In this document: positions 8,567 to 35,643 of the stretch, piece by piece | Layout: every line of letters begins with the position of its first letter | Position numbering within the stretch: position 1 is the first letter of the stretch | NCBI GenBank assembly: GCA_024640365.1 | Contig: JAHEFE010000004.1 | Coordinates: 39,959 to 103,958, forward strand | Source of the DNA: Woeseiaceae bacterium | GTDB lineage: Bacteria > Pseudomonadota > Gammaproteobacteria > Steroidobacterales > Woeseiaceae | Direction: 5' to 3' | DNA length: 64,000 nucleotides | The notes under the pieces: model-generated | Seen by the model: only the letters and a program-made list of their open reading frames with translations | Databases searched by the model: none | Told to the model about the DNA's origin: nothing | Position numbers and translations under genes: made by a program

Positions 8567-8593
8567 AATAATTCACTCACTACGAGGACAGAC

Positions 8594-9259: not shown

Positions 9260-9280
9260 TCACATATAGCGAGCTGCCAC

Positions 9281-11615: not shown

Positions 11616-11630
11616 CGTGAGATTGATTTA

Positions 11631-14600
11631 ATGGGGCCGATGGAAACAGAACAGAAGGGATTGATTGCCTGGTTTGCGGCCAATCACGTCGCAGCGAACC
11701 TGCTCATGTTGATGATTATCGCGTTCGGCATTGCGGCGGCATTTACTGTGCGCAAACAGAGCACGCCGGATATCACGCTCAATAATATTACGATAACCGT
11801 TCCCTATCTGGGTGCCGCGCCGCAGGAAGTGGAAGAGGGTGTCGTCATCAAGATCGAAGAAGCGATCGCGGATGTTGATGGCATTTCAAAAATGACCTCG
11901 AGAGCGCGCGAGGGCGTTGGCACAGTAACCGTAGAATTAAAGACTAACGCTGACCTCAATGAGGTGCTCGCCGTCATCAAAAATCGAATTGATGCGATTT
12001 CGACATTCCCAGGATTGACCGAGAAACCGATTATTGCACAGCAGGAAATTCCATTTCACGTCGTATTCTTGTCGATCTATGGCGATCTGGACATATTTGC
12101 ACGGAAAGCACTTTCACAAGAGATTCGCGACGAATTGGTGGCAATCCCTGCGGTGAGTCGTGTGCAAATCTTTGGCGATCGACCTTACGAAATCAGTATT
12201 GAGGTATCGGAAGACGATCTTCGCAAGTATGGCCTGAGTATGAGCGAGATTTCACAGGCGATACGGAACTCGTCGGTCGATATGCCCGGCGGAGCCATTA
12301 AGTCGGAAGGTGGCAGCATTCTTCTGCGTACGGAAGGTCAGGTGTATACCGGAGCTGAATTCGGCGATCTGGTTTTACGCAATTACCCGGATGGCTCTAA
12401 ACTCCTGTTGCGTGAAGTTGCCAATATCAAGGATGAATTTTCCGAGAGCGAATCCTGGGGTATTTTTAACGGCGAGCCAGCGGTTGTCATGCGTGTTTTG
12501 GCACTCGGTGAGCAAAACGAACTGGATACAGCGGCAGCCGTAAAGGACTACGTCGCGAAGAAATCCAAGATGCTTCCAGATAATGTGAAACTTGATGTTT
12601 GGGTAGACCGGTCTTTCTATCTGGAGGGACGTCTGGAGTTGATGATCCAGAATATGCTGCAGGGCGGCCTTGTCGTGTTCATCATTCTTGCGTTGTTCGT
12701 ACGGTTGAGAGTAGCCGCATGGGTCATCCTGGGTATACCCATCGCATTTTTCGGCGCTCTCTGGTTGATGCCTTACGGACCTTGGCCGACGACGATCAAC
12801 ATGATTAGTTTGTTCGGATTTATTTTAGTACTGGGTATTGTTGTAGACGATGCAATCATCATTGCCGAAAGTGTCTATACCAAAATACGGGCGGATGGCC
12901 ATTCCCTCGATAATGTGATTCTTGGTGCCAAGAAGGTGGCAACTCCGGCTACTTTTGGTGTATTGACGACTATTGCAACTTTCGCACCCATGTTGTTTGT
13001 TGGCGGATTTGCCGGTCCATTTTTTGAGGCTATGTCCGTAGTCATTATTTTGTGTCTGCTCTTTTCGCTGGTTGAATCCAAGCTAATTCTTCCGGCACAT
13101 TTGGCGCACATGAAATTGCATGTCATTCCGGACGAGGAGATCTTCCGTCCGTATCACGATTTCGGCTTCATTAAGCGGATACCTATGTTTTTCCGCCGCT
13201 TCCAGAGGCGTGTGCAAATAGGTATGCACACCGTTATTGATAAGCACTACGAACCCTTCGTGCGCAAAGCAATCAATAATCGCGGTGTGACTGTGACTAT
13301 ATTTTTCGCGATGTTAATTTTGGCGGCAGGGGTAATGCAGAGCGGCTTGGTGCGCGTCGTAGTCTTTCCGGAAATTCCGAGTGACTTCCTGGTTGCGAAT
13401 CTTGAGATGCAGGACGGTACCTCAACGGAGTCCCGTGACAAAGCCTTGCATCATATGGAAGACGCCTTACAAGCCGTACGCGAGACGTTCAAGAAAGAAA
13501 ATCCTGGCGTTAAAGATCCGGTCAAGCACGTGGCTCTGTTCACCAACGGTGACACGGGCGGTGTCTTCTTCTCAGAGTTGATCAAGGATGAGGATCGCGC
13601 CCTGGAGGGCGAAGAGATTACACAGCTGTGGCGCGACCAGGCGGGAGAGATAGCAGGCGTCAAAACATTATCTTTCTCAGGCGGAGATATGTTTGGTGGC
13701 GGCGCACCATTGAGCTTTAGCCTGGAAGGCAATGATATCGACAAGCTGGCCGCGGCGGCGTCCGAGCTGGAAGCGGAGCTCGTTACTTATGATGGTCTGT
13801 TTGATATTGAAAACTCATTCAGTTCCGGCGGTCGAGAAATTAGTTTGTCCATTAAGCCGGAAGCGGAGGCTTTGGGAATCACGATGGCAACCCTGGGGCG
13901 CCAGGTACGGCAGGCATTTTATGGTGAAGAGGCGCAACGCATTCAACGCGGCAAAGACGAAGTCAAAGTAATGGTTCGTTATCCTCGCGGCGAACGGCGT
14001 TCGATTGCAGACCTCGAAAACATGCGAATCCGCACGCCAACAGGCGAAGAGGTGCCATTTTACTCAGTGGCCGATCTTTCGTTTGGTCAGGCTTTTTCGA
14101 GCATTACGAGGCAAGATCGAAAGCGCACGGTTACCGTTTCTGCGGACCTTGATCCTGAAAAGGTCGAGCCGGGTGTTGTGATTAAAGAGATTGGCGAAAC
14201 GTTCATGCCAGACTTGCTGGCACGTTATCCAGGAGTGAGTTACGAGCTGGAAGGCGCCAGTCTTGAACAACAAGAGTTGGTCGGAAACTTGATGAAGGCG
14301 TCGATCGCTGCGTTGTTCCTGATTTACGCGCTGATCGCTATTCCGTTGAAATCTTATATCCAGCCGTTGCTGATCATGTCGGTAATCCCATTTGGGTTGG
14401 TGGGTGCTGTGATTGGTCATGTGATCATGGGTATCTCAATCAGCATGTTCTCGTTGTTTGGCCTGATTGCATTGGCGGGAGTGGTGGTCAACGACAGTCT
14501 TGTCATGGTGCATTTCATCAATGAGGCGCGCGCGGAAGGTATGGAGCGCATTGAGGCGGTTATTCAATCGGGCACGCAGCGCTTCAGGGCGATCATTCTG

Positions 14601-14831
14601 ACGTCGCTGACCACCGCGGGCGGCTTGATGCCGATCATGCTGGAAAAGAGCTTGCAGGCGAAAATGGTGATTCCAATGGCCGTTTCGCTAGCCTTCGGAA
14701 TCCTGTTTGCGACAGTGATTACGTTATTCCTTGTCCCATGCCTGTACATTCTGGCGGGAGACTTTAGACGTTGGCGTCAGCGGGCAAAACACGTCATGCT
14801 GGGGAGTGAACCTGCACCGAAGCAGTTGTGA
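11631..14831 (+). CDS. RND efflux permease (AcrB/HAE family)
   Basis: 1066 aa with 12-TM, two-large-loop architecture. Typical ...GIVVDDAIII.E and VVNDSLVMV motifs. Confidence 0.9.
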   Translation: MGPMETEQKGLIAWFAANHVAANLLMLMIIAFGIAAAFTVRKQSTPDITLNNITITVPYLGAAPQEVEEGVVIKIEEAIADVDGISKMTSRAREGVGTVTVELKTNADLNEVLAVIKNRIDAISTFPGLTEKPIIAQQEIPFHVVFLSIYGDLDIFARKALSQEIRDELVAIPAVSRVQIFGDRPYEISIEVSEDDLRKYGLSMSEISQAIRNSSVDMPGGAIKSEGGSILLRTEGQVYTGAEFGDLVLRNYPDGSKLLLREVANIKDEFSESESWGIFNGEPAVVMRVLALGEQNELDTAAAVKDYVAKKSKMLPDNVKLDVWVDRSFYLEGRLELMIQNMLQGGLVVFIILALFVRLRVAAWVILGIPIAFFGALWLMPYGPWPTTINMISLFGFILVLGIVVDDAIIIAESVYTKIRADGHSLDNVILGAKKVATPATFGVLTTIATFAPMLFVGGFAGPFFEAMSVVIILCLLFSLVESKLILPAHLAHMKLHVIPDEEIFRPYHDFGFIKRIPMFFRRFQRRVQIGMHTVIDKHYEPFVRKAINNRGVTVTIFFAMLILAAGVMQSGLVRVVVFPEIPSDFLVANLEMQDGTSTESRDKALHHMEDALQAVRETFKKENPGVKDPVKHVALFTNGDTGGVFFSELIKDEDRALEGEEITQLWRDQAGEIAGVKTLSFSGGDMFGGGAPLSFSLEGNDIDKLAAAASELEAELVTYDGLFDIENSFSSGGREISLSIKPEAEALGITMATLGRQVRQAFYGEEAQRIQRGKDEVKVMVRYPRGERRSIADLENMRIRTPTGEEVPFYSVADLSFGQAFSSITRQDRKRTVTVSADLDPEKVEPGVVIKEIGETFMPDLLARYPGVSYELEGASLEQQELVGNLMKASIAALFLIYALIAIPLKSYIQPLLIMSVIPFGLVGAVIGHVIMGISISMFSLFGLIALAGVVVNDSLVMVHFINEARAEGMERIEAVIQSGTQRFRAIILTSLTTAGGLMPIMLEKSLQAKMVIPMAVSLAFGILFATVITLFLVPCLYILAGDFRRWRQRAKHVMLGSEPAPKQL

Positions 14832-14842
14832 TCAGAGGTTCC

Positions 14843-15526
14843 CTAGCGGCGCAGGATGGCCCACCAGCGGGCAATGTTGAGCAAGCTCATCATGGATGCA
14901 GCAACATAGGTCATTGCAGCTGCTTGTAACAGACGCCGCGCGTGGCGTTTGTCGCTCTGAATCAACACGTTGTTTTGCTCCAGCATCGGCAAGGCTCGAT
15001 TGAAGCTCGCGTCGAATTCGGTGGGCAAGGTTACCAGGTGGACGAGGACCGTACTTCCCAGCGTGATAAATCCTGCGGCAAACATCAGCAAACCCATTGC
15101 GGGTACTCGCGTCAGCAGCCCAATGAACGGTGATATCAGAAGTATCGCGGCTCCGAGGCGCTCAACCTTGCGGGAGGCGTTAACCAGGTGGCTGCGGACA
15201 CGCAGCGGTGGATAACCTTCGTTGTCCTGTAGCGCGTGTCCGACCTCGTGGGCAGCGACCGTAATGGCTGTTAGCGAGTGCCCCGTGAATTTGTCCGGTG
15301 ATAATCGTACTGCTTTCTTTTCCGGGTCGTAGTGATCGCCCTGAGTAGTCTCCTCAACGGTAATATCGTGCAATCCGTATTTATCGAGCAGGTGGCGAGC
15401 CAGTTCAGCGCCACTGCCGGAGTAACGATCTTGGGGAGAGCTATATTTTGCCAAAACTCTTCGCACCCATAGTCCGGGGCCAAAGATCGCGGCAATGATA
15501 AGGATTAACAGGACGAGTACTGGCAT
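14843..15526 (-). CDS. Membrane zinc metallopeptidase (YugP/Zn_peptidase_2-like)
   Basis: 227 aa with HEVGHALQ (HExxH) and flanking TM helices. Confidence 0.75.
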   Translation of the reverse strand: MPVLVLLILIIAAIFGPGLWVRRVLAKYSSPQDRYSGSGAELARHLLDKYGLHDITVEETTQGDHYDPEKKAVRLSPDKFTGHSLTAITVAAHEVGHALQDNEGYPPLRVRSHLVNASRKVERLGAAILLISPFIGLLTRVPAMGLLMFAAGFITLGSTVLVHLVTLPTEFDASFNRALPMLEQNNVLIQSDKRHARRLLQAAAMTYVAASMMSLLNIARWWAILRR

Positions 15527-15532
15527 TCAGGA

Positions 15533-16258
15533 CTAGTCTTGCAGGCTGAGATAGACGCGCCGATTGTGCTTGCCTTTCTTTTCCACCTTGTCGATTGAGA
15601 CCCGGCCAACTTCCCCTGTGGATTGAAGATGAGTACCGCCGCAGGGCTGTAAATCCACGCCTGAGATTTCCAGCAGTCGAATCTTGCCAACTCCACGAGG
15701 AGGTTGTACAGACATGGTGCGGACCAAATCCGGTTGGGCGTCGAGCTCTTCATCCGTGATCCAGTGACTACTTACGGGATGGTTATCGTCCACGAGTTTT
15801 TGAACGGCCGCGGTTACGGCCTCTTTGTCGATAGCATCCTGCATATCAAAATCAAGGCGGCTTCTCTGGGCCGTTATGTTTCCGCCGGTTACGCCGTACT
15901 TGAGGACAGTGCCAAGCAAGTGCATTGCCGTATGCATACGCATGTGCCTGTAACGCTGTTCCCAGTCCAGGATGGCAGTGACCTCGCTGCCAACCGGCGG
16001 CAGAGGGCTGCCATCAGCTAGCAGGTGTCTTATTACTCCCTGCTCGCCATGACGGGTGTCGATAACCTTGGCGCTAAGCCCGTTCCACTCAATGCGTCCT
16101 GTGTCGCCTGGTTGCCCACCACCCAACGGATAGAAAACAGTTTTATCGAGTTCCACAGTATTATCACTGGTTGCAGTAACTACTGCTTTACAGTCCCTGA
16201 GGTATGCATCGTCTCGAAACAGCGTCTCGGTCATTGCGTTCGAATCCTTTAAAGTCAA
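15533..16258 (-). CDS. Alanyl-tRNA editing protein (AlaX-M-like)
   Basis: MHTAMHLL (HxxxH) and CGGTH zinc motifs of the Ala/Thr-tRNA synthetase second additional domain. Confidence 0.8.
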   Translation of the reverse strand: MTLKDSNAMTETLFRDDAYLRDCKAVVTATSDNTVELDKTVFYPLGGGQPGDTGRIEWNGLSAKVIDTRHGEQGVIRHLLADGSPLPPVGSEVTAILDWEQRYRHMRMHTAMHLLGTVLKYGVTGGNITAQRSRLDFDMQDAIDKEAVTAAVQKLVDDNHPVSSHWITDEELDAQPDLVRTMSVQPPRGVGKIRLLEISGVDLQPCGGTHLQSTGEVGRVSIDKVEKKGKHNRRVYLSLQD

Positions 16259-16311
16259 ACAGGCAGTGGCAAACGTAGCATAGCTGATGGCTCTAAGGGC
16301 ACTTTGGGCAC

Positions 16312-16342
16312 AAAAAAGCCCGGATCACGGACGGTCCGGGCT
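16312..16342 (-). terminator. Rho-independent terminator (minus strand) after the Cys-rich gene
   Basis: On the minus strand: stem AGCCCGGA / TCCGGGCT, 10-nt loop, then TTTTTT. It begins 23 nt past the stop of 16365..16769. Confidence 0.7.
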
Positions 16343-16364
16343 GGTTCGGATTAGTAGCGGGACG

Positions 16365-16769
16365 CTATTGGAAGACCGACATAGAATTAGACCTGATTTG
16401 GCCGAAGGTGAACTGTTGTTCTTTTGAATTGTTGTATGCAGCAATGATAAGGCGTGCTTCGCGTAGCCAATCACAATCTTCACAGGTACAACTCTGCTCG
16501 TCATGGTTTCTCGCGACAACGCCAGCGGCGATTAAATCGACGCAATACAGGAGTGATGCATGAATGGTAAATAGCGGCTTTTTCGCCAGGTCACTGAATT
16601 TTTCATGGCAGCTGAGCCAGTGGCAGGGTTTGTCAATCGCACAAGAGTGGCAGCTAGCGCTGTCGGCGCGGAAAAAACCACTCTCGATGCAGCGCCTCTC
16701 ATCAATACTGCGGATGATGTACATCCGCGGAAAGGTAAGCGCCTCAATCATCTTTCGCCTCATAGACAC
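16365..16769 (-). CDS. Cys/His-rich hypothetical protein (9 Cys)
   Basis: 134-aa ORF with CHSCAIDKPCHWLSCH and CTCEDC clusters. It has its own terminator downstream and is divergent from the redox operon. Confidence 0.55.
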   Translation of the reverse strand: MSMRRKMIEALTFPRMYIIRSIDERRCIESGFFRADSASCHSCAIDKPCHWLSCHEKFSDLAKKPLFTIHASLLYCVDLIAAGVVARNHDEQSCTCEDCDWLREARLIIAAYNNSKEQQFTFGQIRSNSMSVFQ

Positions 16770-16849
16770 CTCCAGAACGCAGGTGGATCAGACCAGGTTA
16801 ACGCTAAAAATCCTTGCGGATAGCTAAACGCTAATTTACGTCCATGTCC

Positions 16850-16863
16850 ATGATATTTGTCAA
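16850..16863. promoter_or_regulatory. Candidate FNR/CRP-family box
   Basis: ATGATatttGTCAA matches 8 of 10 positions of the FNR consensus TTGAT-N4-ATCAA. It sits in the divergent intergenic region, about 235 nt upstream of the 17098 start. Confidence 0.3.
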
Positions 16864-17097
16864 TTTGGCGGTACTTAATAGCACTCGGATTATCCGTATA
16901 TTCAAGACATGGTGTTTTACGTCAGAGTTCGGCAGGTACAGGTCAAAGGATTAATTTGTCAGGTACACCCGGGGTCTGAATACGGCGGCATGGCGGCGTT
17001 CTCAGTATCGCTCTCGCACCAAATCAGGCTTGTCACTAAAGGTACAGGACTACGAATGTCCGGCTGTCTCGCAGCCAACTCGGTGGAGCAGGAGACA

Positions 17098-18168
17098 ATG
17101 AGCGACAATAGATACCTCTTTAAGCGCGGCCAAACCTGGTGGGTGAAAGTTGCAGTGCCGCGTTCGTTGCGGCAAGAACTTGGGTTCGACCTGCGCCAGT
17201 CCTTGAAGACTCAGGATATTGATGAAGCTCGGCAACAGCGTGACATCGTACTGAAGGAATTTCGCGCCCAAATCGCGACTGCGAAAAAACAACGCGACCA
17301 GGGACGGGCGTGTAAAGCCGTCGCAGGGGAAGGCTTTGAAATCATTGCTCGCGAGGATTTTTCAGACGTCACATATTTACTTGAAGTTAAGGCCCCTTTG
17401 CTTGCCAAGGCGGCCAAGCCGGGCCAGTTTGTGATTGTTATTTCCCACGATCATGGCGAACGCATTCCCTTAACGATTGCCGATTTTAATGTCGTCCGCG
17501 GAACGATCACGCTCGTCATTCAAGCTGTCGGCAAGAGCACACGGGAGATGCAACAAATCTGCCAGGTAGGAACCATGCTTCATAGCATAGTAGGGCCAAT
17601 GGGTATTCCCAGTCATTTAGGTGCGCAAAAAGTAGTTTGTGTCGCCGGTGGACTGGGGGTTGCTCCGGTTTATCCGCAATTAAGAGCGTTCAAACAAAGT
17701 GGTGCATACGTCATCGGCGTGATCGGCTTTCGCAACGCAGATCTTGTGTTCTGGCGGGAAAAATTTGAAAAGTACTGTGACGAGCTGATTATCTGTACTG
17801 ATGACGGTTCGGTCGGCGTCAAGGGTCGGGTCACGCTCGGGCTCGAAATGGCGATGGATAAACACGCGGATATAGATCGCGTCGTCGCAGTTGGTCCACC
17901 CATCATGATGAAAGCATGCGCTGAGGCAACAAGACCGCGTGGGCTGGAAACAATCGTAAGCATGAATCCGATAGTCGTCGATGGCACTGGCATGTGTGGT
18001 GGCTGTCGCGTGACTGTGGGCGATGGCATCAAATTTGCTTGTGTTGATGGCCCCGAGTTCGATGCTCATCAAGTGGATTTTGACGATTTGATTAGTCGCC
18101 TCGGGCGCTTCCGCAAAGATGAGAATGAAGCCATGAGTGTCTGGAAAAAAGCGGTGGGAGCGGTCTGA
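17098..18168 (+). CDS. PyrK/NfnA/SudB-like FAD/[2Fe-2S] electron-transfer subunit with an about 79-aa integrase-arm-like N-terminal extension
   Basis: Start chosen at the ATG preceded by GGAGCAGGAGACA. From FEIIAREDFSDVTYLLEVKAPLLAKAAKPGQFVIV onward it looks like the ferredoxin-NADP reductase-like small partner of GltD-type enzymes, with C-terminal CGGCRV...C. The ORF track allows an earlier start at 16909. Confidence 0.7.
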   Translation: MSDNRYLFKRGQTWWVKVAVPRSLRQELGFDLRQSLKTQDIDEARQQRDIVLKEFRAQIATAKKQRDQGRACKAVAGEGFEIIAREDFSDVTYLLEVKAPLLAKAAKPGQFVIVISHDHGERIPLTIADFNVVRGTITLVIQAVGKSTREMQQICQVGTMLHSIVGPMGIPSHLGAQKVVCVAGGLGVAPVYPQLRAFKQSGAYVIGVIGFRNADLVFWREKFEKYCDELIICTDDGSVGVKGRVTLGLEMAMDKHADIDRVVAVGPPIMMKACAEATRPRGLETIVSMNPIVVDGTGMCGGCRVTVGDGIKFACVDGPEFDAHQVDFDDLISRLGRFRKDENEAMSVWKKAVGAV

Positions 18169-19670
18169 TGGCCAAGAAAACTATACGCAACATCCCCAAG
18201 GACCGAACCGCAATTCCGACCCAGGATGCTGACGTTCGCGCCCATAATTTCCTGGAAGTTTCGCTGGGTTATCGGCAAGAAGATGCAGCCGTGGAATGCG
18301 AGCGCTGCCTGTTATGTCCGAAACCGGTCTGCATTGACGCCTGTCCGGTCAATATCAATATTCCGGCGTTTATCGAGTGCATTAGCAAGCAGGATTTCCG
18401 CGCCGCGTACGATGTCTTGACGGAATCAACGCTTTTGCCTGCCATCTGCGGTCGAGTCTGTCCCCAGGAAGACCAGTGTGAAGGAGTTTGCACGGTTGGC
18501 GAAAGTCTTGAGCCAGTTGCCATTGGCCGACTGGAGCGCTGGGTTGGTGATAAAGCAATTGAAGAAGGTTGGTTTAACAAACCCTTTATCGAACCTAACG
18601 GTTTTCGCATCGGCATCGTTGGCTCAGGCCCCGCAGGTATGGCCTGTGCCGCTGATATGGCGAAAGCGGGTTGCGATGTAACGGTTTTTGAAGCCCTGCA
18701 TGAGGCTGGCGGTGTTTTAAGATACGGAATCCCAGAATTCCGGTTGCCGAATCATGTACTCGATGCTGAGCTCGAAAACCTGAAGAAATTGGGTGTCAAA
18801 ATCCAATGCAATACCCTGGTTGGGCGTCTCTTTACCATTGAAGAGATGCTTACTGAGCACGGCTTCGACTCGGTGTTCATCGGTAGTGGTGCGGGTTATC
18901 CAAGTTTTATGGGTATTGGTGGAGAGTCTCTTAACGGAGTCTTGTCGGCCAATGAACTGCTGACCCGCTGCAACCTGATGGGAGCAACCGAGTTTCCCAA
19001 GTACGACACCCCCCTCGGCCTTGGGAATAAAGTGGCCGTTATCGGTGCCGGCAACACCGCAATGGATGCCCTCCGAGTGTCATTGCGGGCCGGTGCCGAA
19101 AACGTCTACTGCATTTATCGGCGTAGCCGCTCCGAAAGTCCTGCGAGACTTGAAGAGATTGAACATGCCGATGAAGAGGGTGTGCAATTCGAGTGGCTAA
19201 CTGCCCCGATAGAAATTCTCAATGACGGTAACGGCAATGTGCGAGCTATGCGTTGTCAGCGTATGGAACTCGGCGAACCTGACGCATCCGGTCGTCGTCG
19301 CCCCATACCGATTGAAGGTAGCGAATACGAATTCGAGGTCGATACGGTTGTGTATGCCATTGGCACTAACGCAAATCCAATTATCGGACAGACGTCAAAG
19401 ATTGCGCTGAATAAGTGGGGCTACATCGAAACCGATGAGAACCTTGCGACATCAATCAATGGTGTCTATGCCGGTGGCGATATCGTGACTGGCGCCGCTA
19501 CTGTAATCCTGGCGATGGGTGCTGGCCGGAAGGCTGCGCGCGGCATGAAAGCATATCTCGGTATTCGAGATTCCGAATCAGTTTATGAGTCCGACGAAAC
19601 CAATGGCAAGAACAAGCTGTTTGGCATAGATCGGTCTGAGCGTACGTTTGCTCGAGTCCACGTGGCATAG
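18168..19670 (+). CDS. GltD/NfnB/SudA-like NAD(P)H flavoprotein with 2x[4Fe-4S] N-domain
   Basis: CERCLLCPKPVCIDACP and CGRVCPQEDQCEGVC clusters. Two Rossmann motifs: IVGSGPAGMACA and VIGAGNTAMDA. One-nt start/stop overlap (TGATG) with the upstream gene. Confidence 0.85.
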   Translation: MAKKTIRNIPKDRTAIPTQDADVRAHNFLEVSLGYRQEDAAVECERCLLCPKPVCIDACPVNINIPAFIECISKQDFRAAYDVLTESTLLPAICGRVCPQEDQCEGVCTVGESLEPVAIGRLERWVGDKAIEEGWFNKPFIEPNGFRIGIVGSGPAGMACAADMAKAGCDVTVFEALHEAGGVLRYGIPEFRLPNHVLDAELENLKKLGVKIQCNTLVGRLFTIEEMLTEHGFDSVFIGSGAGYPSFMGIGGESLNGVLSANELLTRCNLMGATEFPKYDTPLGLGNKVAVIGAGNTAMDALRVSLRAGAENVYCIYRRSRSESPARLEEIEHADEEGVQFEWLTAPIEILNDGNGNVRAMRCQRMELGEPDASGRRRPIPIEGSEYEFEVDTVVYAIGTNANPIIGQTSKIALNKWGYIETDENLATSINGVYAGGDIVTGAATVILAMGAGRKAARGMKAYLGIRDSESVYESDETNGKNKLFGIDRSERTFARVHVA

Positions 19671-19681
19671 GAAGCGAATTA

Positions 19682-21607
19682 ATGCCTGCGAAAAATAGCA
19701 AAGTTTCAGTAGTGAGCAAGCCGGCGATGGCAATAAACGAACATGTCGTCGAAATTATCAGTGATTCAGGCGAGGGCGCGCAGAAATGCGGGCAATCATT
19801 CGCCTCCATTGCAGCGAAAATGGGCAATGGAATCTGGACCGTTGAAATCATACCGGCCGAAATTCAACCCCCTGCGCGCAGTATCGAAGGTGCCAGCGGC
19901 AACCGTATACGGCTAGCCGCCGATAGGGTCACCAATGGTGGCGATAAAGCGAATTTGATGGTGGCGTTTAATGAGCAGGTTTTGCTCGGCAGATTGCATG
20001 CTGACGAACTCGCCGACGGCGCTATCATTTTACTCGAGAGCAAGTGGCGCACTGATCCGAATGCGGCTGTCGCAAAGTCATACAGCAATGTGTATGAGCG
20101 TCTTGTGGCTGATGGCTTCAAGCCCATCGAAGTGCCAATGGAGACAGAGTGTCTAAAACTGGTCGCGGATGCACGGCGCGGCAAAAACATGTTCGTACTT
20201 GGTTTGCTGTGCAGTATTTATAGCCTTGATATGCAATTGGCTCGTGATCAAATCAGCACAATCTTTAAAAAGAAGAGCGCAAAGATTATCTCGGCCAATC
20301 ATAGTTTACTGGAGGCTGGTTACGATTGGGCGGAAGCCAATCTAGATATCAAGTTTAAGATTCCGACTACTCCGGCTAAGGAACCGCATATCGTCATCAA
20401 TGGCAATACGGCGCTTGGTCTCGGTGTGATGGCATCGGGTATGGAAGTCTGCGCGATGTACCCGATTACTCCTGCGACGTCCGCATCGCATTACTTAAGC
20501 GATGTATTCAAGAATGTCGGTGGAGTAGTACATCAGGCGGAAGACGAGATAGCGGCATGTGCCTTTGCCATTGGTTCATCCTATGCCGGCAAGTGCGCCG
20601 TAACAATTACCTCAGGCCCAGGCTACTCACTGAAGCAAGAGTGTATTGGTCTTGCGGTCATGGCTGAGATCCCACTAGTCGTAATTAACGTGCAACGTGG
20701 TGGCCCGTCGACCGGGCAACCGACCAAGCCCGAACAGGGCGATATGTTGACTGCCGTATTTGGCAGTCATGGTGATGCTCCGAAAGTTGTGATGGCAGCC
20801 ACAGACATTGAAGACTGTTTCTACTCAGTCATTACAGCAAGGCGCATCGCCGAAACATTCAATACGGTTGTCGTGCTGCTTTCAGATGCGGGTCTGGCTA
20901 CGGCACAGCAACCTTGTCCGCGCCCAGAGTTCAGTGAGGATTGGTTGGCGCCACCCATTGACCAGAGCCCGGTTGAAGACGGACGTCTGGCATATGACTG
21001 GCAATTGCAGACGGGCAGGGTTAACCGAATCATTCCGGGGCAACCCAATGGCATGCACACGGTAACGGGTTTGGCGCACGACAGACGAAGCTGTGTTGCC
21101 TATAACCTAACCGTAAACAAAGAGGGCGTGCGAAATCGCAGCCTTAAGCTCGCTGCATTGCAAAAGACTTTAAAGACCCCGCCTGTATTTGGTGACGACA
21201 CCGGCGAGTTACTGGTGGTGGGCTGGGGCAGCACCAAGGGAGCAATCGAAGAGGCGGTACAGCGAGTCCGCAACGATGGTTACAGCGTTTCGTCCCTGCA
21301 CTTGAGATTCATTCAACCCATGGCATCGGGCATCAAGGAAATTCTGCAACGCTTCGACAAGGTTTTGTGCGTTGAGAATAACTGGTCAGATGATATGGAG
21401 GACGACCTGATTACCGAGGACAACCGGCGGTACTCAAACCTGGCATGGCTACTAAGGGCACGCAGCCTGGTAGACATCGATTGCTGGGGCGAGGTGGGCG
21501 AACAACCAATCAAACCTGGAACAGTTGAACGCGTAATTCGTGATCGCCTCGCTCCAAGAGCGATTAACAAAACTGCCCCGAACAGGGCAGCTGCAGGCAG
21601 GCATTAA
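19682..21607 (+). CDS. korA: 2-oxoacid:ferredoxin (acceptor) oxidoreductase subunit alpha (gamma-alpha fusion)
   Basis: 641 aa. Contains GEGAQKCGQ (gamma-like domain) and MYPITPATS...EDEIAA (alpha domain). 11-nt gap to the upstream gene. Confidence 0.85.
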   Translation: MPAKNSKVSVVSKPAMAINEHVVEIISDSGEGAQKCGQSFASIAAKMGNGIWTVEIIPAEIQPPARSIEGASGNRIRLAADRVTNGGDKANLMVAFNEQVLLGRLHADELADGAIILLESKWRTDPNAAVAKSYSNVYERLVADGFKPIEVPMETECLKLVADARRGKNMFVLGLLCSIYSLDMQLARDQISTIFKKKSAKIISANHSLLEAGYDWAEANLDIKFKIPTTPAKEPHIVINGNTALGLGVMASGMEVCAMYPITPATSASHYLSDVFKNVGGVVHQAEDEIAACAFAIGSSYAGKCAVTITSGPGYSLKQECIGLAVMAEIPLVVINVQRGGPSTGQPTKPEQGDMLTAVFGSHGDAPKVVMAATDIEDCFYSVITARRIAETFNTVVVLLSDAGLATAQQPCPRPEFSEDWLAPPIDQSPVEDGRLAYDWQLQTGRVNRIIPGQPNGMHTVTGLAHDRRSCVAYNLTVNKEGVRNRSLKLAALQKTLKTPPVFGDDTGELLVVGWGSTKGAIEEAVQRVRNDGYSVSSLHLRFIQPMASGIKEILQRFDKVLCVENNWSDDMEDDLITEDNRRYSNLAWLLRARSLVDIDCWGEVGEQPIKPGTVERVIRDRLAPRAINKTAPNRAAAGRH

Positions 21608-21619
21608 GAGGAACAGCAC

Positions 21620-22585
21620 ATGGCCGTTCGTGCAACAGATTTACTTTTAAGTTCGGGTGACGAAGAGCATACGCTCGAAGAATACGAAGGACGCATGCCA
21701 CGCTGGTGCACCGGTTGCGGTGACTTGGCGATTCTGGCAGCGGTGCAAAAGCTTTGTCGCGACAAGCAGTTAAACCGTGAAAAAGTGGTATTTGTATCGG
21801 GCATAGGCTGCTCCAGTCGTTTCCCTCACTACATGGGGACCTATGGTTTCCACGGGCTCCATGGACGGGCACTGCCGGTGGCGGAGGGCGTGAAGATGCG
21901 TCGTCCCGACCTGGATGTTTTTGTCAATACCGGCGACGGCGATTGCTGCAGTATCGGCGCCGCGCACTGGATGCATGCTACCCGTTACAACATGAATATG
22001 ACCGTAATGATGCACGACAATAACATCTACGGTTTAACCAAAAAGCAGGCATCACCAACCTCGCCCAAGGGAACTCGTTCAAACACTACTCCTCGAGGCT
22101 CAGACCTGGATGCCTTTGACCCTCTGGCGGCGACATTGGGTATGTCCAACTTGTCGTTTGTGGCCCAGGCGGTCGATTGGATACCGGAGCTCTTATATAA
22201 AATTATCAAGCAAGGTTATGAGCATCGCGGATTTTCCTTTATTCGTATTTTGCAGCGTTGTCCGGAGTTCATGCCGAACCGCTTTGAAGCATGCGTGCAA
22301 GATCCTGACAAACTGTTACTGCTGACTCATAAAAATGGCATTGAACTGAGTCCGGGTTTAGCGAAGGTCTATAAAAACCAGAAAGAACACGATCCTTTGG
22401 ATCTGGTAGGCGCGCAGGAGATTGCTGGCACCAGCGAGCGCGTACCGGTTGGTATTTTGTATCGCAATGACTCCGTTCCCTGCTACGAGGATTTGCGCCA
22501 ACCGACGGAGTTGATTACCCCTCAACTAATCCGTAAGGGTCTCGAAACCGAATTAGACAAGTTCACCATTTGGCCATCTGACTGA
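21620..22585 (+). CDS. korB: 2-oxoacid:ferredoxin oxidoreductase subunit beta (TPP-binding)
   Basis: WCTGCGD, GIGCSSR, GDGDC..IG and NNIYGLTKKQ motifs. 12-nt gap to korA. Confidence 0.9.
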   Translation: MAVRATDLLLSSGDEEHTLEEYEGRMPRWCTGCGDLAILAAVQKLCRDKQLNREKVVFVSGIGCSSRFPHYMGTYGFHGLHGRALPVAEGVKMRRPDLDVFVNTGDGDCCSIGAAHWMHATRYNMNMTVMMHDNNIYGLTKKQASPTSPKGTRSNTTPRGSDLDAFDPLAATLGMSNLSFVAQAVDWIPELLYKIIKQGYEHRGFSFIRILQRCPEFMPNRFEACVQDPDKLLLLTHKNGIELSPGLAKVYKNQKEHDPLDLVGAQEIAGTSERVPVGILYRNDSVPCYEDLRQPTELITPQLIRKGLETELDKFTIWPSD

Positions 22586-22599
22586 AGCGTGTAAAGACT

Positions 22600-24852
22600 A
22601 TGAGCGTTGAATTACAGGAACTTCTGAGCTTTCATCGTACGGGCAAAAACCGGGCATTGAAGGACAAGAAAGAACCGGCATTGAAGTTACGGCCGGCACT
22701 GTTTGCTGATTACAGTCAGCTTTCGAAGTTGCGCTATGACTATCCGTTAGTGCTTTTGGATGAGTCGCGAAACGGTGATCACGTCATTTCGTTGATGGAT
22801 CTCATTAACGAAGTGCTGCGGCTAGTAGTCCCACCTGGCACTCAAGGGACGCGAGTTCGTCAGCAGGTATTAGCCCTCGAACTGAAGATTCGTGAATTAT
22901 TAAGAACCGTTCCACCCAGCAAGCTTGGGGAGTTATGGAGGCGGGCTGAGAAAGACCTCTTGGCACATCAGTCCGATGAAGTAGCTCAACAATTGCAAGA
23001 ATCCTGGGATACGGCATGGGCCGCATTGCGGGTTGATGGGCTTGTAGTTGATTGCGATAGCGAATTACCGGAACAGTTTGTCCGACATTTCTGGAGATGT
23101 GAGGAAGCTCTGAGAACAAAGCGCGGATCGGCTAAAATCGATCGGCTCATACTCAAACTTGGGGATATTCTGACGGTTGATGAGCTAAAGAGTGAAAGCT
23201 CACGTACCCCGCGAAAACTAAGAGACTCGCTCGGTTCGCGCTATCAAGATGCTTTTGATTTCGACATCATGGCAGAACTCCTTAATAGCGCCGCCGCTCC
23301 GGTGCGTCTGCCAGCGCAACGCAAGAAGCGCATCAAGGCTGCGCTCGCGACACTAAAAAGCCAGCATTTCTTCAAGCACTCTGATACAGATGCTAGCGCC
23401 GGCCAATACGGCTTCCAGTATCGATCTGTAAGCGCTGCAATGGCGGCATGGTATGAGCGATTGCCGGATTTGGTGGCGTTGAATAACGCGATTGCGGTCG
23501 CTGAGCTTGAAATTGACAATCGATATTGTGAAACACGGCACGATTTGTATCTTGGCAGGTTGGGTGCGCACGCATTAAGTCCCGCCGATTTGGCGTTCTT
23601 CCCCAGTTACTTAGTGTCATTGTCTGAAAGGGATCTGGATAGCGGGGAGCAGGCAATATTGATGGATGCATTGTCATCTGATTTGCCACTCAAGATTTTA
23701 CTGCGGGTTAACGATATTCTCGGCAGTCCATCGCCGGTCGATGCGCAACTGCACAATGGTGTTCGCGGGCAACAATTTGCCGCGATGACCGTGGGTCTGA
23801 ACGATGCATTTGTGGTCCAGGGCAGCAGCTCAAATCTCTATCATGAGCAAGCTGCTGTAGAGCGCGGCATTAACTTCGGAGGGCCGGCTCTTTTCAGCAT
23901 ATACGCCGGTTCGTGCAATATGCCTGCCGATTTACCGGTTTATTTGTCGACAGCCGCGGCAATAGAGTCGCGAGCATTCCCTGCTTACAGTTACGATCCG
24001 TCGGCCGCAGGCGGTTTGGCATGTCGCTATGACATCGAAGCCAATCCGCAACTTGAAGCACAGTGGGTGGCCCACGAATTCATTTACGAAGACGAAGCGC
24101 TGCAACGGGTCACTGAAACGTTGGCATTCACGATGCTCGATTTCGCCACGCTGGATGTTCGTTATGCGGACTATTTTGCCGACGTTCCGAAAGATAGTTG
24201 GCACGAAAACATGCGTCCTGCAGTCGAGTATCTGGAATTGGCGGAACAAGAGCGCCAGGAGCTTGTGCCATATGTCGTCATGATAGACGACAAGAATTGT
24301 CTTCACCGTCTGGTGGTGGACGATATGCTGATCCGGGTAGCCGCCCGTTGCGCGCAGAATTGGGATACCTTGCGCGAGTTTGGCGGAATCAATAATTCGT
24401 ACGCACAAGCCGCGGCCGAGCGGGTTAGCCAACATATGGCGGCTGAAAAAGAGCAGGCCCTGGAGGATTTGCGTGCACAGCTAGCCAGTCGTCCGGGCGT
24501 TGCAACGTCTGGCTCAGCCCCCGCTGCACTGGCACGCGAACCTGAGCAGGACGTAGCATCGGTTGCGGTCGAGACTATAGAACCCGAGCTTGAGGATGCT
24601 GATCCGGAAGGGGCGTACATCGAAACCCCGCGTTGCACGACGTGCGATGAATGTACTGCTCGAAATGCACGCATGTTTGCGTACGACGAGAATAAGCAGG
24701 CGTACATTGCGGATTTGACGGCGGGTACTTATCGCGACCTGGTTGAGGCGGCTGAAAACTGTCAGGTAGCCATCATTCATCCAGGTAAGCCGCTGGATCC
24801 GAAAGAAGCGGGATTGGAGGATCTGCTTGCCAGGGCAGCCGATTTTAGTTAG
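22600..24852 (+). CDS. Large orphan protein with C-terminal single-cluster ferredoxin domain
   Basis: 750-aa ORF, 14 nt after korB. The last about 90 aa read ETPRCTTCDECTARNARMFAYDENKQAYI...AENCQVAIIHPG, the CxxCxxC...C pattern of small [4Fe-4S]/[3Fe-4S] ferredoxins. I do not recognise the first about 650 aa. Confidence 0.75.
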   Translation: MSVELQELLSFHRTGKNRALKDKKEPALKLRPALFADYSQLSKLRYDYPLVLLDESRNGDHVISLMDLINEVLRLVVPPGTQGTRVRQQVLALELKIRELLRTVPPSKLGELWRRAEKDLLAHQSDEVAQQLQESWDTAWAALRVDGLVVDCDSELPEQFVRHFWRCEEALRTKRGSAKIDRLILKLGDILTVDELKSESSRTPRKLRDSLGSRYQDAFDFDIMAELLNSAAAPVRLPAQRKKRIKAALATLKSQHFFKHSDTDASAGQYGFQYRSVSAAMAAWYERLPDLVALNNAIAVAELEIDNRYCETRHDLYLGRLGAHALSPADLAFFPSYLVSLSERDLDSGEQAILMDALSSDLPLKILLRVNDILGSPSPVDAQLHNGVRGQQFAAMTVGLNDAFVVQGSSSNLYHEQAAVERGINFGGPALFSIYAGSCNMPADLPVYLSTAAAIESRAFPAYSYDPSAAGGLACRYDIEANPQLEAQWVAHEFIYEDEALQRVTETLAFTMLDFATLDVRYADYFADVPKDSWHENMRPAVEYLELAEQERQELVPYVVMIDDKNCLHRLVVDDMLIRVAARCAQNWDTLREFGGINNSYAQAAAERVSQHMAAEKEQALEDLRAQLASRPGVATSGSAPAALAREPEQDVASVAVETIEPELEDADPEGAYIETPRCTTCDECTARNARMFAYDENKQAYIADLTAGTYRDLVEAAENCQVAIIHPGKPLDPKEAGLEDLLARAADFS

Positions 24853-24884: not shown

Positions 24885-25619
24885 TTAATGCTTGGTGGGT
24901 CCGTTGCTGCTTGCGTGGCGGGCGATCTGAGTGAGCGCTTCCATATCCATCAGGTAGATGAGCCTGCGTTTAACCTTGATAAGACCCTCTTTCTGCATTT
25001 TTGTCAGCAGGCGGCTTGCGGTCTCAACGGTGAATCCCAGGTAGCTCGCAATTTCCTGTCGTGACATGGCAAGATCTAATTCGTAGGGCGGTCGACCTTG
25101 ACGTTCTTGCCGCCGCGACAGGTCGAGTAAAAATGCCGACATGCGCTGTTCGGCCGGAGCGCCATCCGGGAACAGCAGGTTTATTGAAAACTCCCGGCTC
25201 ATCAAGTGCATCAATGACGTTTGTAGGCTCGGTAGTCTTACGGCGAGGTTCATAAGTTCTTGGTAAGGCAATACACAGACCGAGCAAGTTTGGACGATGG
25301 CGGCATTACAGCGATGTTGCTCAGGATAAATGGCGTCGAACCCGAGCAGGTCTCCTGTCATGTGGAAGCCGTGTACCTGTTCTTCACCGCTGGCATCCGT
25401 TGTGTAACTTTTTACGCAGCCTGTACGCACGGCGTAGACCGCCGTGAACTTATCGCCAACCTGGAACAGATGGCTACCGATTGGCAGGTTCTCAGCATGA
25501 CGAACCAATCCATGGAGTTGTTCGAGATCGATAGGTGTCAATCCATGTTGCCAGCACAATTCGTTGAGTGTGCATGTAGAACAGGCGGTGCGTAACTGGC
25601 CGGATGTCAGACTGTCCAA
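24885..25619 (-). CDS. fnr: FNR/ANR-type oxygen-sensing Crp-family regulator
   Basis: N-terminal CSTCTLNELC (Cx2Cx5C) plus a central Cys (QTCSVC), as in E. coli FNR Cys20/23/29/122. cNMP-like beta-barrel and C-terminal HTH (SRQEIASYLGFTVETASRLL). Confidence 0.85.
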   Translation of the reverse strand: MDSLTSGQLRTACSTCTLNELCWQHGLTPIDLEQLHGLVRHAENLPIGSHLFQVGDKFTAVYAVRTGCVKSYTTDASGEEQVHGFHMTGDLLGFDAIYPEQHRCNAAIVQTCSVCVLPYQELMNLAVRLPSLQTSLMHLMSREFSINLLFPDGAPAEQRMSAFLLDLSRRQERQGRPPYELDLAMSRQEIASYLGFTVETASRLLTKMQKEGLIKVKRRLIYLMDMEALTQIARHASSNGPTKH

Positions 25620-26828: not shown

Positions 26829-28136
26829 CTAGTTGAAAGCGGGCGGCCTGTCCGAATCCAGTTTCAGATATCGATCACGCAAGAGTGTCTGCCGGGTGGT
26901 CATTGGCACTGCATGACCGTCGATATATACCGCATCCGGATAGTTGGTCAGCTCCAGCGGATCGCCGCTCCAAATAACAAAATCGGCTGCCTTTCCTTTC
27001 TCCAGACTACCTAGTTGATTGTCGACACCGAATAGCCTTGCAGGGGTAAGCGTAATGGCTTCGAGCGCGGCGATCCACGGTAAACCATGAGCAACTGCAT
27101 TGCCGGCGTATTGTGTGATGTTACGGGCATTTCGCGTCTGGCCATCCGCATCCCCATCAGAGAATGCAATAACGACACCGGCTTTGGCCAGAATAGCGGC
27201 TGCATCCTTGGAGGCGTTGAGCGCGTCAAATGAGGCGGGCAAATTGCGCAAGGGGTTGACGATGACCGCTATTTTCGCGGCGGCCAATTGTTCGGCAACC
27301 ATCCAGGCTTCGGCACCACCGTGGATGATGACGCGTAACCGGTATTTGTGGGCAAGCGCTATCAAGATCTCGATATCGCTGGCGCGGTCAACATTGACGA
27401 TCAGCGGAAGTGTGCCTTGCAAAGCTGGCTGCAGGGCTTCCAGGTCTGCGCGGCTTAGTGAATAGCTGCGACGGGCCGCTCGATCGTAGTCTTCGCGGTG
27501 CTTGGCATAATCGCGCGCATCATCAAGAGCAGTCGTCAAGGTTTGCAAAGCCGCGGCACGTGATCCACCGGTAAGTGAGCCTCCACCGGCGCCCAGGTTA
27601 ACCACCATGGCGGCACCTCGGCGGGTCAGGTAGTTGGCATCCGTATCGAGATCAACCACAGCAGCGAGGCCTGAAAATATCTGACTTTGATAGCGGGGGT
27701 CGTCGGAATATCCAGCAACCGGCGCAATCAACGCGCGTGTAATTCCTTCGACCCTATTTACGCCAATCACGGCGGACCGTCTGTTGTAGGCATCGGCCAC
27801 ATCAAAGCTCGCTGAAAAGTCTCCGCCGCGTTGTATCTTGTCTACAGTTGCGTCGACGGCGGGGATCTCGACCAGTCCAAGGGCACTGAAGGGGACGAAA
27901 AGTCCCGGTGTCACTATTTTTCCAGCCGCATCAATGACCGTTGCACCTGCAGGTAGTTCGACTTTGGCACCGACCGCTCGGATGCGGCCATCCTCAATCA
28001 GCAGCGTGCCGTTTTCGATGACGCCCTGGGGTCCCATCGTATATATCCTGGCGCCTGTGACCAGTGTGGTCGCGGCTACCCCTGTATCGGTCCAGAAAGC
28101 GATGATGAGCGTCATGCTGGCTATCAGGATTCTCAT
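26829..28136 (-). CDS. Exported amidohydrolase-fold protein lacking the HxH metal motif
   Basis: 435 aa with signal peptide MRILIASMTLIIAFWTDTGVAA. It has the amidohydrolase N-terminal beta-sandwich pattern (LLIEDGRIRAVG...VIDAAGKIVTPGL). Where HxH is expected it reads FVPFSALG. ATGA overlap with the upstream gene. Confidence 0.7.
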   Translation of the reverse strand: MRILIASMTLIIAFWTDTGVAATTLVTGARIYTMGPQGVIENGTLLIEDGRIRAVGAKVELPAGATVIDAAGKIVTPGLFVPFSALGLVEIPAVDATVDKIQRGGDFSASFDVADAYNRRSAVIGVNRVEGITRALIAPVAGYSDDPRYQSQIFSGLAAVVDLDTDANYLTRRGAAMVVNLGAGGGSLTGGSRAAALQTLTTALDDARDYAKHREDYDRAARRSYSLSRADLEALQPALQGTLPLIVNVDRASDIEILIALAHKYRLRVIIHGGAEAWMVAEQLAAAKIAVIVNPLRNLPASFDALNASKDAAAILAKAGVVIAFSDGDADGQTRNARNITQYAGNAVAHGLPWIAALEAITLTPARLFGVDNQLGSLEKGKAADFVIWSGDPLELTNYPDAVYIDGHAVPMTTRQTLLRDRYLKLDSDRPPAFN

Positions 28137-29497: not shown

Positions 29498-29516
29498 AAT
29501 TTGTCCGTTCAGTGTG

Positions 29517-35610: not shown

Positions 35611-35643
35611 TTGGTTCTCCTGTTGGCGTTAATCAGAGGTTTC

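Follow-up and report, generated by a model that had tools for sequence, protein, structure and literature searches.

The window analysed here is a 64,000-nucleotide stretch of a Woeseiaceae bacterium (GCA_024640365.1, contig JAHEFE010000004.1, positions 39,959 to 103,958 of the forward strand), and it contains five consecutive genes (g1 to g5) on the + strand (Table 1). The g1/g2 junction reads TCTGATG, giving a 1-nt overlap, and the remaining gaps are 11, 12 and 14 nt. The longest open reading frame for g1 starts at 16909; however, homologues and a GGAG ribosome-binding site place the start at 17098. A convergent FNR-type gene follows 32 nt after the g5 stop, and its product contains the C-x2-C-x5-C arrangement (ACSTCTLNELC) and an E--SR helix (ETASR), though it scored 203.6 bits with NF008365, which is below the cutoff of 228. 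The layout given in the preliminary description was thus confirmed, whereas its designation of g5 as an orphan was found to be wrong.

Table 1 Features of the five-gene locus and its flanks (positions in the window)
Position	Strand	Feature
16850-16863	.	FNR-like box ATGATatttGTCAA, 8 of 10 consensus positions, 234 nt upstream of the g1 ATG
16875-16902	+	Candidate weak sigma-70-like promoter match (TTAATA-16-TATATT)
17098-18168	+	g1
17098-17334	+	g1 N-terminal extension of 79 aa matching Pfam DUF6538 (an integrase N-terminal domain)
17335-18168	+	g1 core, NfnA-like small subunit (FAD/NAD-binding fold plus [2Fe-2S] motif DGTGMCGGCR...C)
18168-19670	+	g2, NfnB-like large subunit (Fer4_20 with two [4Fe-4S] clusters, plus an FAD/NADPH domain)
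19682-21607	+	g3, KorA, alpha subunit of a two-subunit 2-oxoacid:ferredoxin oxidoreductase (domains III-I-II)
21620-22585	+	g4, KorB, beta subunit with TPP motif GDGD...N and four invariant Cys for one [4Fe-4S] cluster
22600-24852	+	g5 (750 aa)
22600-23400	+	g5 residues 1-267, helical N-terminal domain with no recognisable relative
23401-24066	+	g5 residues 268-489, degenerate TPP-binding (PP) domain of PFOR type
24067-24489	+	g5 residues 490-630, beta-rich region and long helices, homologous to the C-terminal extension of the long PFOR
24490-24603	+	g5 residues 631-668, disordered Ala/Glu/Pro-rich linker
24604-24852	+	g5 residues 669-750, single-cluster [4Fe-4S] ferredoxin domain (C679-x2-C682-x2-C685...C721) and stop codon
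24885-25619	-	FNR-type regulator, convergent with g5

Profile searches showed that g1 contains DHODB_Fe-S_bind and matches NF004862 at 359 bits against a cutoff of 220, while g2 contains Fer4_20 and Pyr_redox_2 and matches TIGR01316 at 564 bits against a cutoff of 472. Both are closest to the crystallised NfnAB of Thermotoga maritima and Pyrococcus furiosus, and closer to NfnI than to NfnII: g1 matched the P. furiosus NfnI small subunit (5jca_S) at E 1e-89 and T. maritima NfnA (4ylf_A) at E 4e-65, and g2 matched T. maritima NfnB (4ylf_B) at E 2e-155 and P. furiosus NfnI-L (5jca_L) at E 2e-146. The two-subunit architecture, the cofactor motifs and the overlapping genes are those of the known NfnAB. 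The pair, which had been described as PyrK/NfnA-like and GltD/NfnB-like, is NfnAB proper, so NADH and NADPH may both take part. The DUF6538 extension of g1 (E 1.9e-11, 43.9 bits against a cutoff of 27) is restricted to one subclade; among the related loci (numbered with the prefix L), it is conserved in frame in L003, L006, L034 and L036 and is absent from the other 45 or so orthologues.

The product of g3 contains POR, POR_N and PFOR_II and matches TIGR03710 at 503 bits against a cutoff of 483; its closest solved relative is the OGOR of Magnetococcus marinus (6n2n_A, E 9e-75). The product of g4 contains TPP_enzyme_C and PFO_beta_C, and C30, C33, C64, C214, G105-D108 and N134 are invariant. 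The TPP and [4Fe-4S] motifs of this KorAB-type enzyme are intact, and no Fer4 domain is present in g3 or g4.

No Pfam or NCBIfam family was matched by g5 at E <= 0.001. A weak Fer4_13 match at residues 678-727 was, however, seen in 31 of 31 family members, the four Cys ligands are invariant and the tail matches the [4Fe-4S] ferredoxin Fd I of Desulfovibrio africanus (1dax) at E 1e-4. A Foldseek comparison of the predicted structure matched the body to the PFORs of Moorella and D. africanus and to OOR/OFOR beta subunits. Residues 268-750 were found to be homologous to the TPP-binding domain, C-terminal extension and single-cluster ferredoxin tail of a genuine PFOR of 1,629 aa, encoded beside rnfCDGE/B in Persicobacter psychrovividus (BLASTP E 4e-51; hhalign probability 100%, E 5e-55). 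In g5, the GDG...NTGGQ motif of this enzyme is replaced by SERD...NDILGSPSP, though the conserved motif AxESRAFPxxxYDP that follows the PP domain is retained. Domains I-III and V and the Cys ligands of the proximal cluster are also lacking. The protein is thus a PFOR-derived pseudoenzyme rather than an orphan scaffold. Its N-terminal domain, predicted with pLDDT of about 85-92 for residues 50-200, is unrelated to the PFOR and gave no fold match in the PDB (best E 0.17). The ferredoxin domain is the most conserved part, at 70% identity against about 40% for the body, and it hangs on a linker of 23-50 residues (Ala 35%, Glu 16%, Pro 15%) with only 20% identity across the family. The pLDDT was below 50 for residues 631-688, and the ferredoxin domain was not placed confidently in the AlphaFold model (pLDDT 47-72).

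The family of g5 comprises at least 2,777 clusters at 50% identity and occurs in at least 596 species genomes. Eighty related loci were retrieved by their g5 homologue, and in every one with enough upstream DNA (50-58 per gene; g2 in 58, g1 in 50-52), nfnA, nfnB, korA and korB lie immediately upstream in the same order and on the same strand, with 60-80% identity for g1-g4 and about 42% for g5. No other neighbouring gene is conserved. This pattern fits a self-contained module, as had been proposed in the preliminary description. In a second group of g5 relatives, the protein again directly follows korAB but is followed by an RnfB-like Fe-S protein instead of being preceded by nfnAB, which points to g5 being an electron adaptor on the KorAB side.

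Low-oxygen control, also suggested earlier, gains support from the family but not from the window itself. The FNR-like box of the window has two mismatches and is at chance level when taken alone, since boxes with up to 2 mismatches number 40 in the window against 31.5 +/- 5.4 expected. Near-consensus boxes, on the other hand, lie upstream of the orthologous operon in 20 of 50 related loci, against 0.74 expected and a maximum of 4 in 300 simulations. The variant bases of the window's box (A1, G10) are also seen in L042 and in L001/L016/L050/L057, whereas the three closest relatives of the window (L003, L006 and L034) have no FNR box within 400 nt upstream of g1 at up to 2 mismatches. No FNR homologue was found in any of the 80 related loci, indicating that the convergent regulator is specific to the arrangement in this genome. 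The sigma-70-like match agrees at 9 of 12 positions, but such sites are not more numerous in the region than in shuffled sequences.

No description of this five-gene system was found in the literature searched. The NfnAB homologues differ from those already known in being encoded with korAB and g5, in mostly aerobic or facultative Proteobacteria; a 2019 review regarded Nfn in aerobes as exceptional and does not mention 2-oxoacid oxidoreductases (PMC6405883). The KorAB shares its subunit architecture and the absence of a delta or ferredoxin domain with the M. marinus OGOR and, it appears, with KorAB of Thauera aromatica and Mycobacterium tuberculosis; the known enzymes use free ferredoxins, whereas here a ferredoxin-bearing pseudo-PFOR is always encoded immediately downstream. 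The three-subunit 2-oxoglutarate:NADP+ oxidoreductase of Azoarcus evansii appears to couple KorAB to a GltD-like subunit of about 63 kDa (Ebenau-Jehle et al. 2003). That type has one fused flavoprotein of about 640 aa (PRK12771-like) and no ferredoxin adaptor, and a trio of exactly that composition lies as a separate paralogue a few kb from the five-gene cluster in L054, L074 and other loci. The two are therefore distinct systems, and an adaptor is not chemically obligatory.

On this computational evidence, the most likely reading, to which a probability of roughly 0.55 may be given, is that the five proteins form one functional module. KorAB, most likely acting on 2-oxoglutarate, would oxidise the 2-oxoacid with CoA and release two low-potential electrons, one at a time, from the single [4Fe-4S] cluster of KorB to the ferredoxin domain of g5. 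The g5 body, without TPP or a cluster of its own, would serve as a docking scaffold, and the linker would let the ferredoxin domain swing between KorB and the distal [4Fe-4S] cluster of NfnB. NfnAB would then reduce NADP+, probably in the Nfn manner, though bifurcation cannot be read from the sequence. The inferred net reaction would be 2-oxoglutarate + CoA + NADH + 2 NADP+ -> succinyl-CoA + CO2 + NAD+ + 2 NADPH, and the chemistry is reversible in principle.

A possible but less likely alternative is that the same parts run in the opposite direction, with NfnAB bifurcating electrons from NADPH to NAD+ and to the tethered ferredoxin, and KorAB using the latter to carboxylate succinyl-CoA to 2-oxoglutarate for anaplerosis or CO2 assimilation. 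Nfn and OGOR are both reversible, the closest solved KorA is the reductive-TCA OGOR of Magnetococcus, a dedicated tethered ferredoxin would keep scarce low-potential electrons from leaking and the FNR boxes fit an oxygen-sensitive reductive enzyme. However, no genes of the reductive TCA cycle or other CO2 fixation are conserved next to the cluster or present in the window, the carriers are mostly heterotrophic or facultative Proteobacteria, and the match to 6n2n may only reflect the small number of solved bacterial two-subunit OGORs.

It is also conceivable, though doubtful, that g5 is a non-catalytic partner of KorAB with a structural, regulatory, oxygen-protective or assembly role, its ferredoxin domain being a redox sensor or an extra relay to other acceptors, while NfnAB uses free cellular ferredoxin. 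In favour of this, 670 of the 750 residues are not ferredoxin, the body is conserved, longer relatives mimic a whole PFOR, g5 relatives occur with korAB but without nfnAB, and one invariant (C152) and one nearly invariant (C584) Cys in the body are unexplained. Nevertheless, the ferredoxin domain is the most conserved part and is joined by a linker typical of mobile carrier domains, and in both genomic contexts g5 sits between korAB and another Fe-S or flavin electron-transfer partner, as an adaptor would predict. Equally unlikely is a different substrate for KorAB, such as pyruvate or a branched-chain or aromatic 2-oxoacid. NCBIfam places g3 only in a generic 2-oxoacid:acceptor oxidoreductase model, the equivalog models for 2-oxoglutarate synthase score far below their cutoffs, KorB is below the TIGR02177 cutoff and archaeal two-subunit OFORs are broad in specificity (PMC5020499); yet the best solved relative is a 2-oxoglutarate enzyme, and the characterised bacterial two-subunit KorAB enzymes of Thauera, Mycobacterium and Azoarcus appear to be specific for 2-oxoglutarate. 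The weakest proposal, that an OGOR, an Nfn transhydrogenase and a large soluble ferredoxin are merely co-expressed for anaerobic redox balancing, rests on the facts that operon membership alone does not prove association and that Nfn and OFORs normally work with diffusible ferredoxins, but gene order is strictly invariant and tightly spaced across classes and phyla with no other conserved neighbour, and a diffusible ferredoxin needs neither a 670-residue PFOR-like body nor a flexible tether.

Expression of the module is probably raised at low oxygen through FNR-type regulators, and its most likely role, as inferred here, would be the coupling of 2-oxoglutarate oxidation to NAD(P)H under such conditions, with the tethered ferredoxin of g5 shuttling electrons between KorB and NfnB.

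The five ORFs lie on one strand, and their reported arrangement is confirmed (see table). The junction between g1 and g2 reads TCTGATG, giving a 1-nt overlap, and the three following gaps are of 11, 12 and 14 nt. The longest ORF for g1 starts at 16909; however, the start was set at 17098, since a GGAG precedes that ATG and the orthologues begin their homology there, as in MADTKYLF of the related locus L006. The convergent Crp/Fnr-family gene lies 32 nt after the g5 stop and encodes a product with cNMP_binding, HTH_Crp_2 and Crp domains, the N-terminal cluster C13-x2-C16-x5-C22 and the E--SR recognition helix (ETASR), although its score on NF008365, 203.6 bits, is below the cutoff of 228. The FNR-like box ATGATatttGTCAA lies 234 nt before the g1 ATG, in a 328-nt intergenic region shared with a divergently transcribed Cys-rich ORF (CHSC...C...C and CTCEDC) without a Pfam match. 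Taken alone the box proves nothing, as boxes with up to two mismatches are as frequent in the window as in shuffles (40 against 31.5 +/- 5.4). Promoter-like and terminator-like matches were likewise at chance level and none falls at a junction, so that the idea of internal terminators splitting the operon was rejected. Rfam (at the gathering threshold) and tRNA scans of the window gave nothing.

Coordinates of the features in the window and in related loci
Location	Feature	Coordinates	Strand
Window	Three tandem ORFs of about 590 aa each, no Pfam match at E <= 1e-10	816-2609, 2737-4524, 4814-6583	+
Window	Cys-rich ORF, 134 aa	16365-16769	-
Window	FNR-like box	16850-16863
Window	g1 (NfnA-type)	17098-18168	+
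Window	g1 N-terminal domain matching DUF6538, 79 residues	17098-17334	+
Window	g2 (NfnB-type)	18168-19670	+
Window	g3 (KorA-type)	19682-21607	+
Window	g4 (KorB)	21620-22585	+
Window	g5	22600-24852	+
Window	Crp/Fnr-family gene	24885-25619	-
Window	Four amidohydrolase-family genes in two pairs	26829-29548, 33904-37377	-
Window	M14 and M13 peptidases	29517-32288, 57349-59394
L054	Paralogous trio (PRK12771-type protein, KorA, KorB)	12287-17262	-
L085 (Persicobacter psychrovividus plasmid pPP1, NZ_AP025293)	PFOR with C-terminal Fer4_13 tail, 1,629 aa	5545-10434
L086	korA-korB-g5 relative operon	6108-17657

The core of g1 together with g2 is of the NfnAB type. The small subunit has the FAD/NAD(H)-binding fold and a [2Fe-2S] site (Asp/Cys3), with DHODB_Fe-S_bind at E 1e-12, the motif DGTGMCGGCR...C and 359 bits on NF004862 against a cutoff of 220; its best solved relative is the P. 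furiosus NfnI small subunit (5jca_S, E 1e-89), and it is clearly closer to NfnI than to NfnII (304 against 152 bits). In g2, Fer4_20, with two [4Fe-4S] clusters, covers positions 1-112 of 113 and Pyr_redox_2, the FAD/NADPH-binding domain, covers 2-291 of 291; TIGR01316 scores 564 bits against a cutoff of 472, and T. maritima NfnB (4ylf_B) matches at E 2e-155. Interestingly, NfnA in this window and in four related loci (L003, L006, L034 and L036) carries an N-terminal domain matching DUF6538, which is normally the N-terminus of phage-type integrases, whereas about 45 other orthologues start directly at the NfnA core. The possibility that this stretch is a dead integrase remnant was rejected, because it is conserved in frame in five loci from differently labelled genomes; the domain is therefore functional.

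The g3 product is a KorA-type alpha subunit with POR at 30-215, POR_N at 248-408 and PFOR_II at 509-579, scoring 503 bits on TIGR03710 against a cutoff of 483. Its best solved relative is the Magnetococcus OGOR (6n2n), though the equivalog models for 2-oxoglutarate synthase score far below their cutoffs. KorB, encoded by g4, has TPP_enzyme_C at E 5e-25 and, across 19 orthologues and paralogues, invariant G105-D106-G107-D108, N134, C30, C33, C64 and C214, corresponding to the TPP motif and to the four Cys of one [4Fe-4S] cluster; its score on TIGR02177, 238 bits, is below the cutoff of 262. Neither g3 nor g4 contains a ferredoxin domain.

The fifth protein had been taken as an orphan in the preliminary description; however, it belongs to a large family, although neither Pfam nor NCBIfam gave a hit at E <= 0.001. 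A word-indexed search found 413 relatives, and there are 2,777 clusters at 50% identity with E <= 1e-3, of which 1,272 have E <= 1e-30. At least 596 species-representative genomes encode it and, judged by their record titles, these are mostly MAGs of Beta-, Gamma- and Alphaproteobacteria. In the alignment C679, C682, C685 and C721 are invariant. A profile search of PDB sequences found only this ferredoxin tail, which matches D. africanus ferredoxin I (1dax, E 1e-4), and Fer4_13 was found in 31 of 31 members (best E 4e-6), though for the window protein itself the score is 20.2 bits, below the cutoff of 24.5.

All 80 related loci were retrieved by their g5 homologue. In each, KorB, KorA, NfnB and NfnA lie immediately upstream, in the same order and on the same strand, whenever the contig reaches that far (g4 in about 70 loci, g3 in about 62, g2 in 58 and g1 in 50-52). 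The proteins of g1-g4 are 60-80% identical to those of the window, while g5 is only about 42% identical. Clustering of all flanking ORFs showed no other gene family shared by more than a handful of loci, and no locus has an FNR gene nearby. Hence, the five genes are a self-contained, mobile unit, and the idea that the adjacent FNR gene forms part of it was rejected, this neighbour being particular to the present genome.

An AlphaFold model of g5 built on 31 sequences (mean pLDDT 78, pTM 0.72) showed, in order, a helical N-terminal domain, a Rossmann-like alpha/beta domain, a beta-rich region, two long helices, a disordered stretch at residues 631-688 and a small C-terminal domain. On comparing this model with the PDB using Foldseek, only TPP enzymes were returned at the top, namely the PFORs of Moorella and D. 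africanus, the beta subunit of oxalate oxidoreductase (5exd_F, rmsd 3.6 A over 172 columns), the Sulfolobus OFOR beta subunit and H. pylori OorB, with 6ciq_B matching at E 4e-4. The N-terminal domain of 267 residues, when modelled alone, gave no credible match.

The decisive link to a genuine PFOR came from a search of a plasmid collection, which gave only two remote hits. One of these is a 1,629-aa single-chain protein of Persicobacter psychrovividus pPP1 that carries POR_N, PFOR_II, POR, Fer4 and TPP_enzyme_C and an intact TPP motif. It is encoded, on a stretch without annotated features, directly upstream of rnfC, rnfD, rnfG and rnfE/A-type genes, with an rnfB-like gene nearby, which suggests a PFOR wired to Rnf by a tethered ferredoxin. 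Residues 1139-1629 of this protein align with residues 268-750 of g5 (BLASTP E 4e-51; hhalign probability 100%, E 5e-55), and the alignment runs through the PP domain with its post-PP motif, a shared C-terminal extension and the same single-cluster ferredoxin tail. Where the Persicobacter enzyme has the canonical GGDG...DTQVYSNTGGQ, conforming to the TPP/Mg-binding motif GDG-X(24-27)-N(T/N), g5 has SERD...RVNDILGSPSP, and no residue there is invariant in the family. An hhalign comparison with a KorB alignment placed the same stretch of g5 on the GDGD...N segment of KorB, but the statistics were weak (probability 3%) and the result is used only as corroboration. No POR_N or POR match was found in any of 31 members, and g5 lacks the Cys ligands of the proximal [4Fe-4S] cluster, as outside the ferredoxin tail only C152 is invariant and C584 nearly so. 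It was therefore concluded that g5 is a PFOR-derived pseudoenzyme that has kept the ferredoxin tail. The ferredoxin domain is about 70% identical across the family, compared with 36-43% for the body and 20% for the linker, which is 23-50 residues long and rich in Ala (35%), Glu (16%) and Pro (15%), a composition that is generally typical of the flexible tethers of mobile carrier domains.

A second genomic context was found for relatives of g5. Medium forms (about 843-867 aa) and longer forms (1,188-1,460 aa) exist, the latter having an additional N-terminal region with weak PFOR_II matches; BLASTP of a long relative against KorA showed no detectable similarity. In the loci L082, L083 and L086 these forms directly follow korA-korB, in L084 a KorB fragment lies directly upstream, and in L087 only a 274-aa gene, which was not searched against Pfam, lies upstream. 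In all five loci they are followed by an RnfB-like Fe-S protein, and a PFOR-like protein lies downstream in L082, L083 and L086, where in L086 it is full length (about 1,528 aa). In the 1,528-aa protein the segment that aligns with the PP motif reads VISQSGMTS, without GDG; this alternative operon, which also includes an RnfC-like fragment, is rich in apparent pseudo-PFORs. No nfnAB is present on the stretches recovered. The constant partner of the g5 family is therefore KorAB, while the electron-transfer partner on the other side varies, as one expects of an adaptor on the KorAB side.

With respect to regulation, 450 nt upstream of the NfnA core were scanned in 50 related loci, and TTGAT-N4-ATCAA with up to one mismatch was found in 20 of them; eight of the 22 boxes are perfect. 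First-order Markov shuffles of the same sequences gave 0.74 loci on average and at most 4 in 300 trials. The same variant bases as in the window's box occur in these sites. However, the three closest relatives of the window (L003, L006 and L034) have no box within 400 nt upstream of g1 at up to two mismatches, and L036 has only a distal box with two mismatches. Control by an FNR/Anr-type regulator is therefore a common, but not universal, property of the operon family, and it is plausible but unproven for this window.

The preliminary description had proposed a self-contained wire from a 2-oxoacid through a dedicated ferredoxin domain to NAD(P)(H). This interpretation is supported as far as computation can go, and it is sharpened on two points, in that g5 is a PFOR-derived tethered-ferredoxin pseudoenzyme and the flavoprotein is NfnAB proper. 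In the best reading, KorAB oxidises a 2-oxoacid, probably 2-oxoglutarate, and electrons leave the single cluster of KorB one at a time to the tethered ferredoxin of g5, whose pseudo-PFOR body docks the assembly; the ferredoxin delivers the electrons to the distal cluster of NfnB, and NfnAB reduces NADP+, probably with NADH as co-donor. The complex, the electron path, the substrate, the stoichiometry and the direction are all inferred. Alternatively, the same parts may run in the reductive direction, g5 may be a structural or regulatory partner only, or KorAB may act on another 2-oxoacid; mere co-expression of the genes is a further reading. No CO2-fixation or other ferredoxin-dependent genes were seen among the ORFs scanned, and the amidohydrolase and peptidase genes of the window point to a peptide- or amide-degrading heterotroph.

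A bolder form of this proposal, which is tentative and considered less likely than not, is that the five proteins form a defined supercomplex in which the pseudoenzyme carries a swinging [4Fe-4S] ferredoxin arm between KorB and NfnB, an iron-sulfur analogue of the lipoyl arm of 2-oxoglutarate dehydrogenase. Such a complex would use the low potential of 2-oxoglutarate decarboxylation to drive flavin-based electron confurcation, giving 2 NADPH per 2-oxoglutarate plus NADH, and in reverse it would fix CO2 into 2-oxoglutarate using only NADPH. This would operate in widespread facultatively aerobic Proteobacteria under FNR control.

The 2-oxoglutarate:NADP+ oxidoreductase of Azoarcus evansii, with which the locus had been compared, appears to consist of KorAB plus one GltD-like subunit of about 63 kDa, without a separate ferredoxin. 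In the present locus the flavoprotein is the two-subunit NfnAB and a ferredoxin-bearing fifth protein is present. Interestingly, a trio that looks like the Azoarcus-type enzyme, comprising a 639-aa PRK12771-type GltD-like NAD(P)-binding protein, a 624-aa KorA and a 350-aa KorB, lies as a separate paralogue within a few kb of the five-gene cluster in L054 and also in L009, L022, L025, L064, L073 and L074. It is only 27-35% identical to g2-g4; the five-gene system is therefore distinct, and two differently wired KorAB systems sit side by side. A 2019 review of Nfn regarded its presence in aerobes as exceptional and does not mention 2-oxoacid oxidoreductases at all (PMC6405883), while papers on R. 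palustris AadN and on the reductive TCA cycle of tubeworm symbionts concern different systems. No description of this cluster or of the g5 family was found in the full-text literature searched, which lacks most subscription journals, so that prior description cannot be excluded.

Nfn and ferredoxin-dependent 2-oxoacid oxidoreductases are usually treated as enzymes of strict anaerobes that communicate through free ferredoxin. The cluster described here places both, apparently hard-wired by a dedicated tethered ferredoxin, in genomes labelled mainly as Beta-, Gamma- and Alphaproteobacteria from soil, sediment and groundwater. The body of the fifth protein has no Pfam or NCBIfam model, and it appears to be a clear case of a metabolic enzyme (PFOR) turned into a non-catalytic electron-carrier scaffold. 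If the module works as proposed, it is an alternative, low-oxygen route through the 2-oxoglutarate step of the TCA cycle, which would conserve as NADPH the energy that the 2-oxoglutarate dehydrogenase complex dissipates, or, alternatively, a route for CO2 incorporation driven by NADPH.
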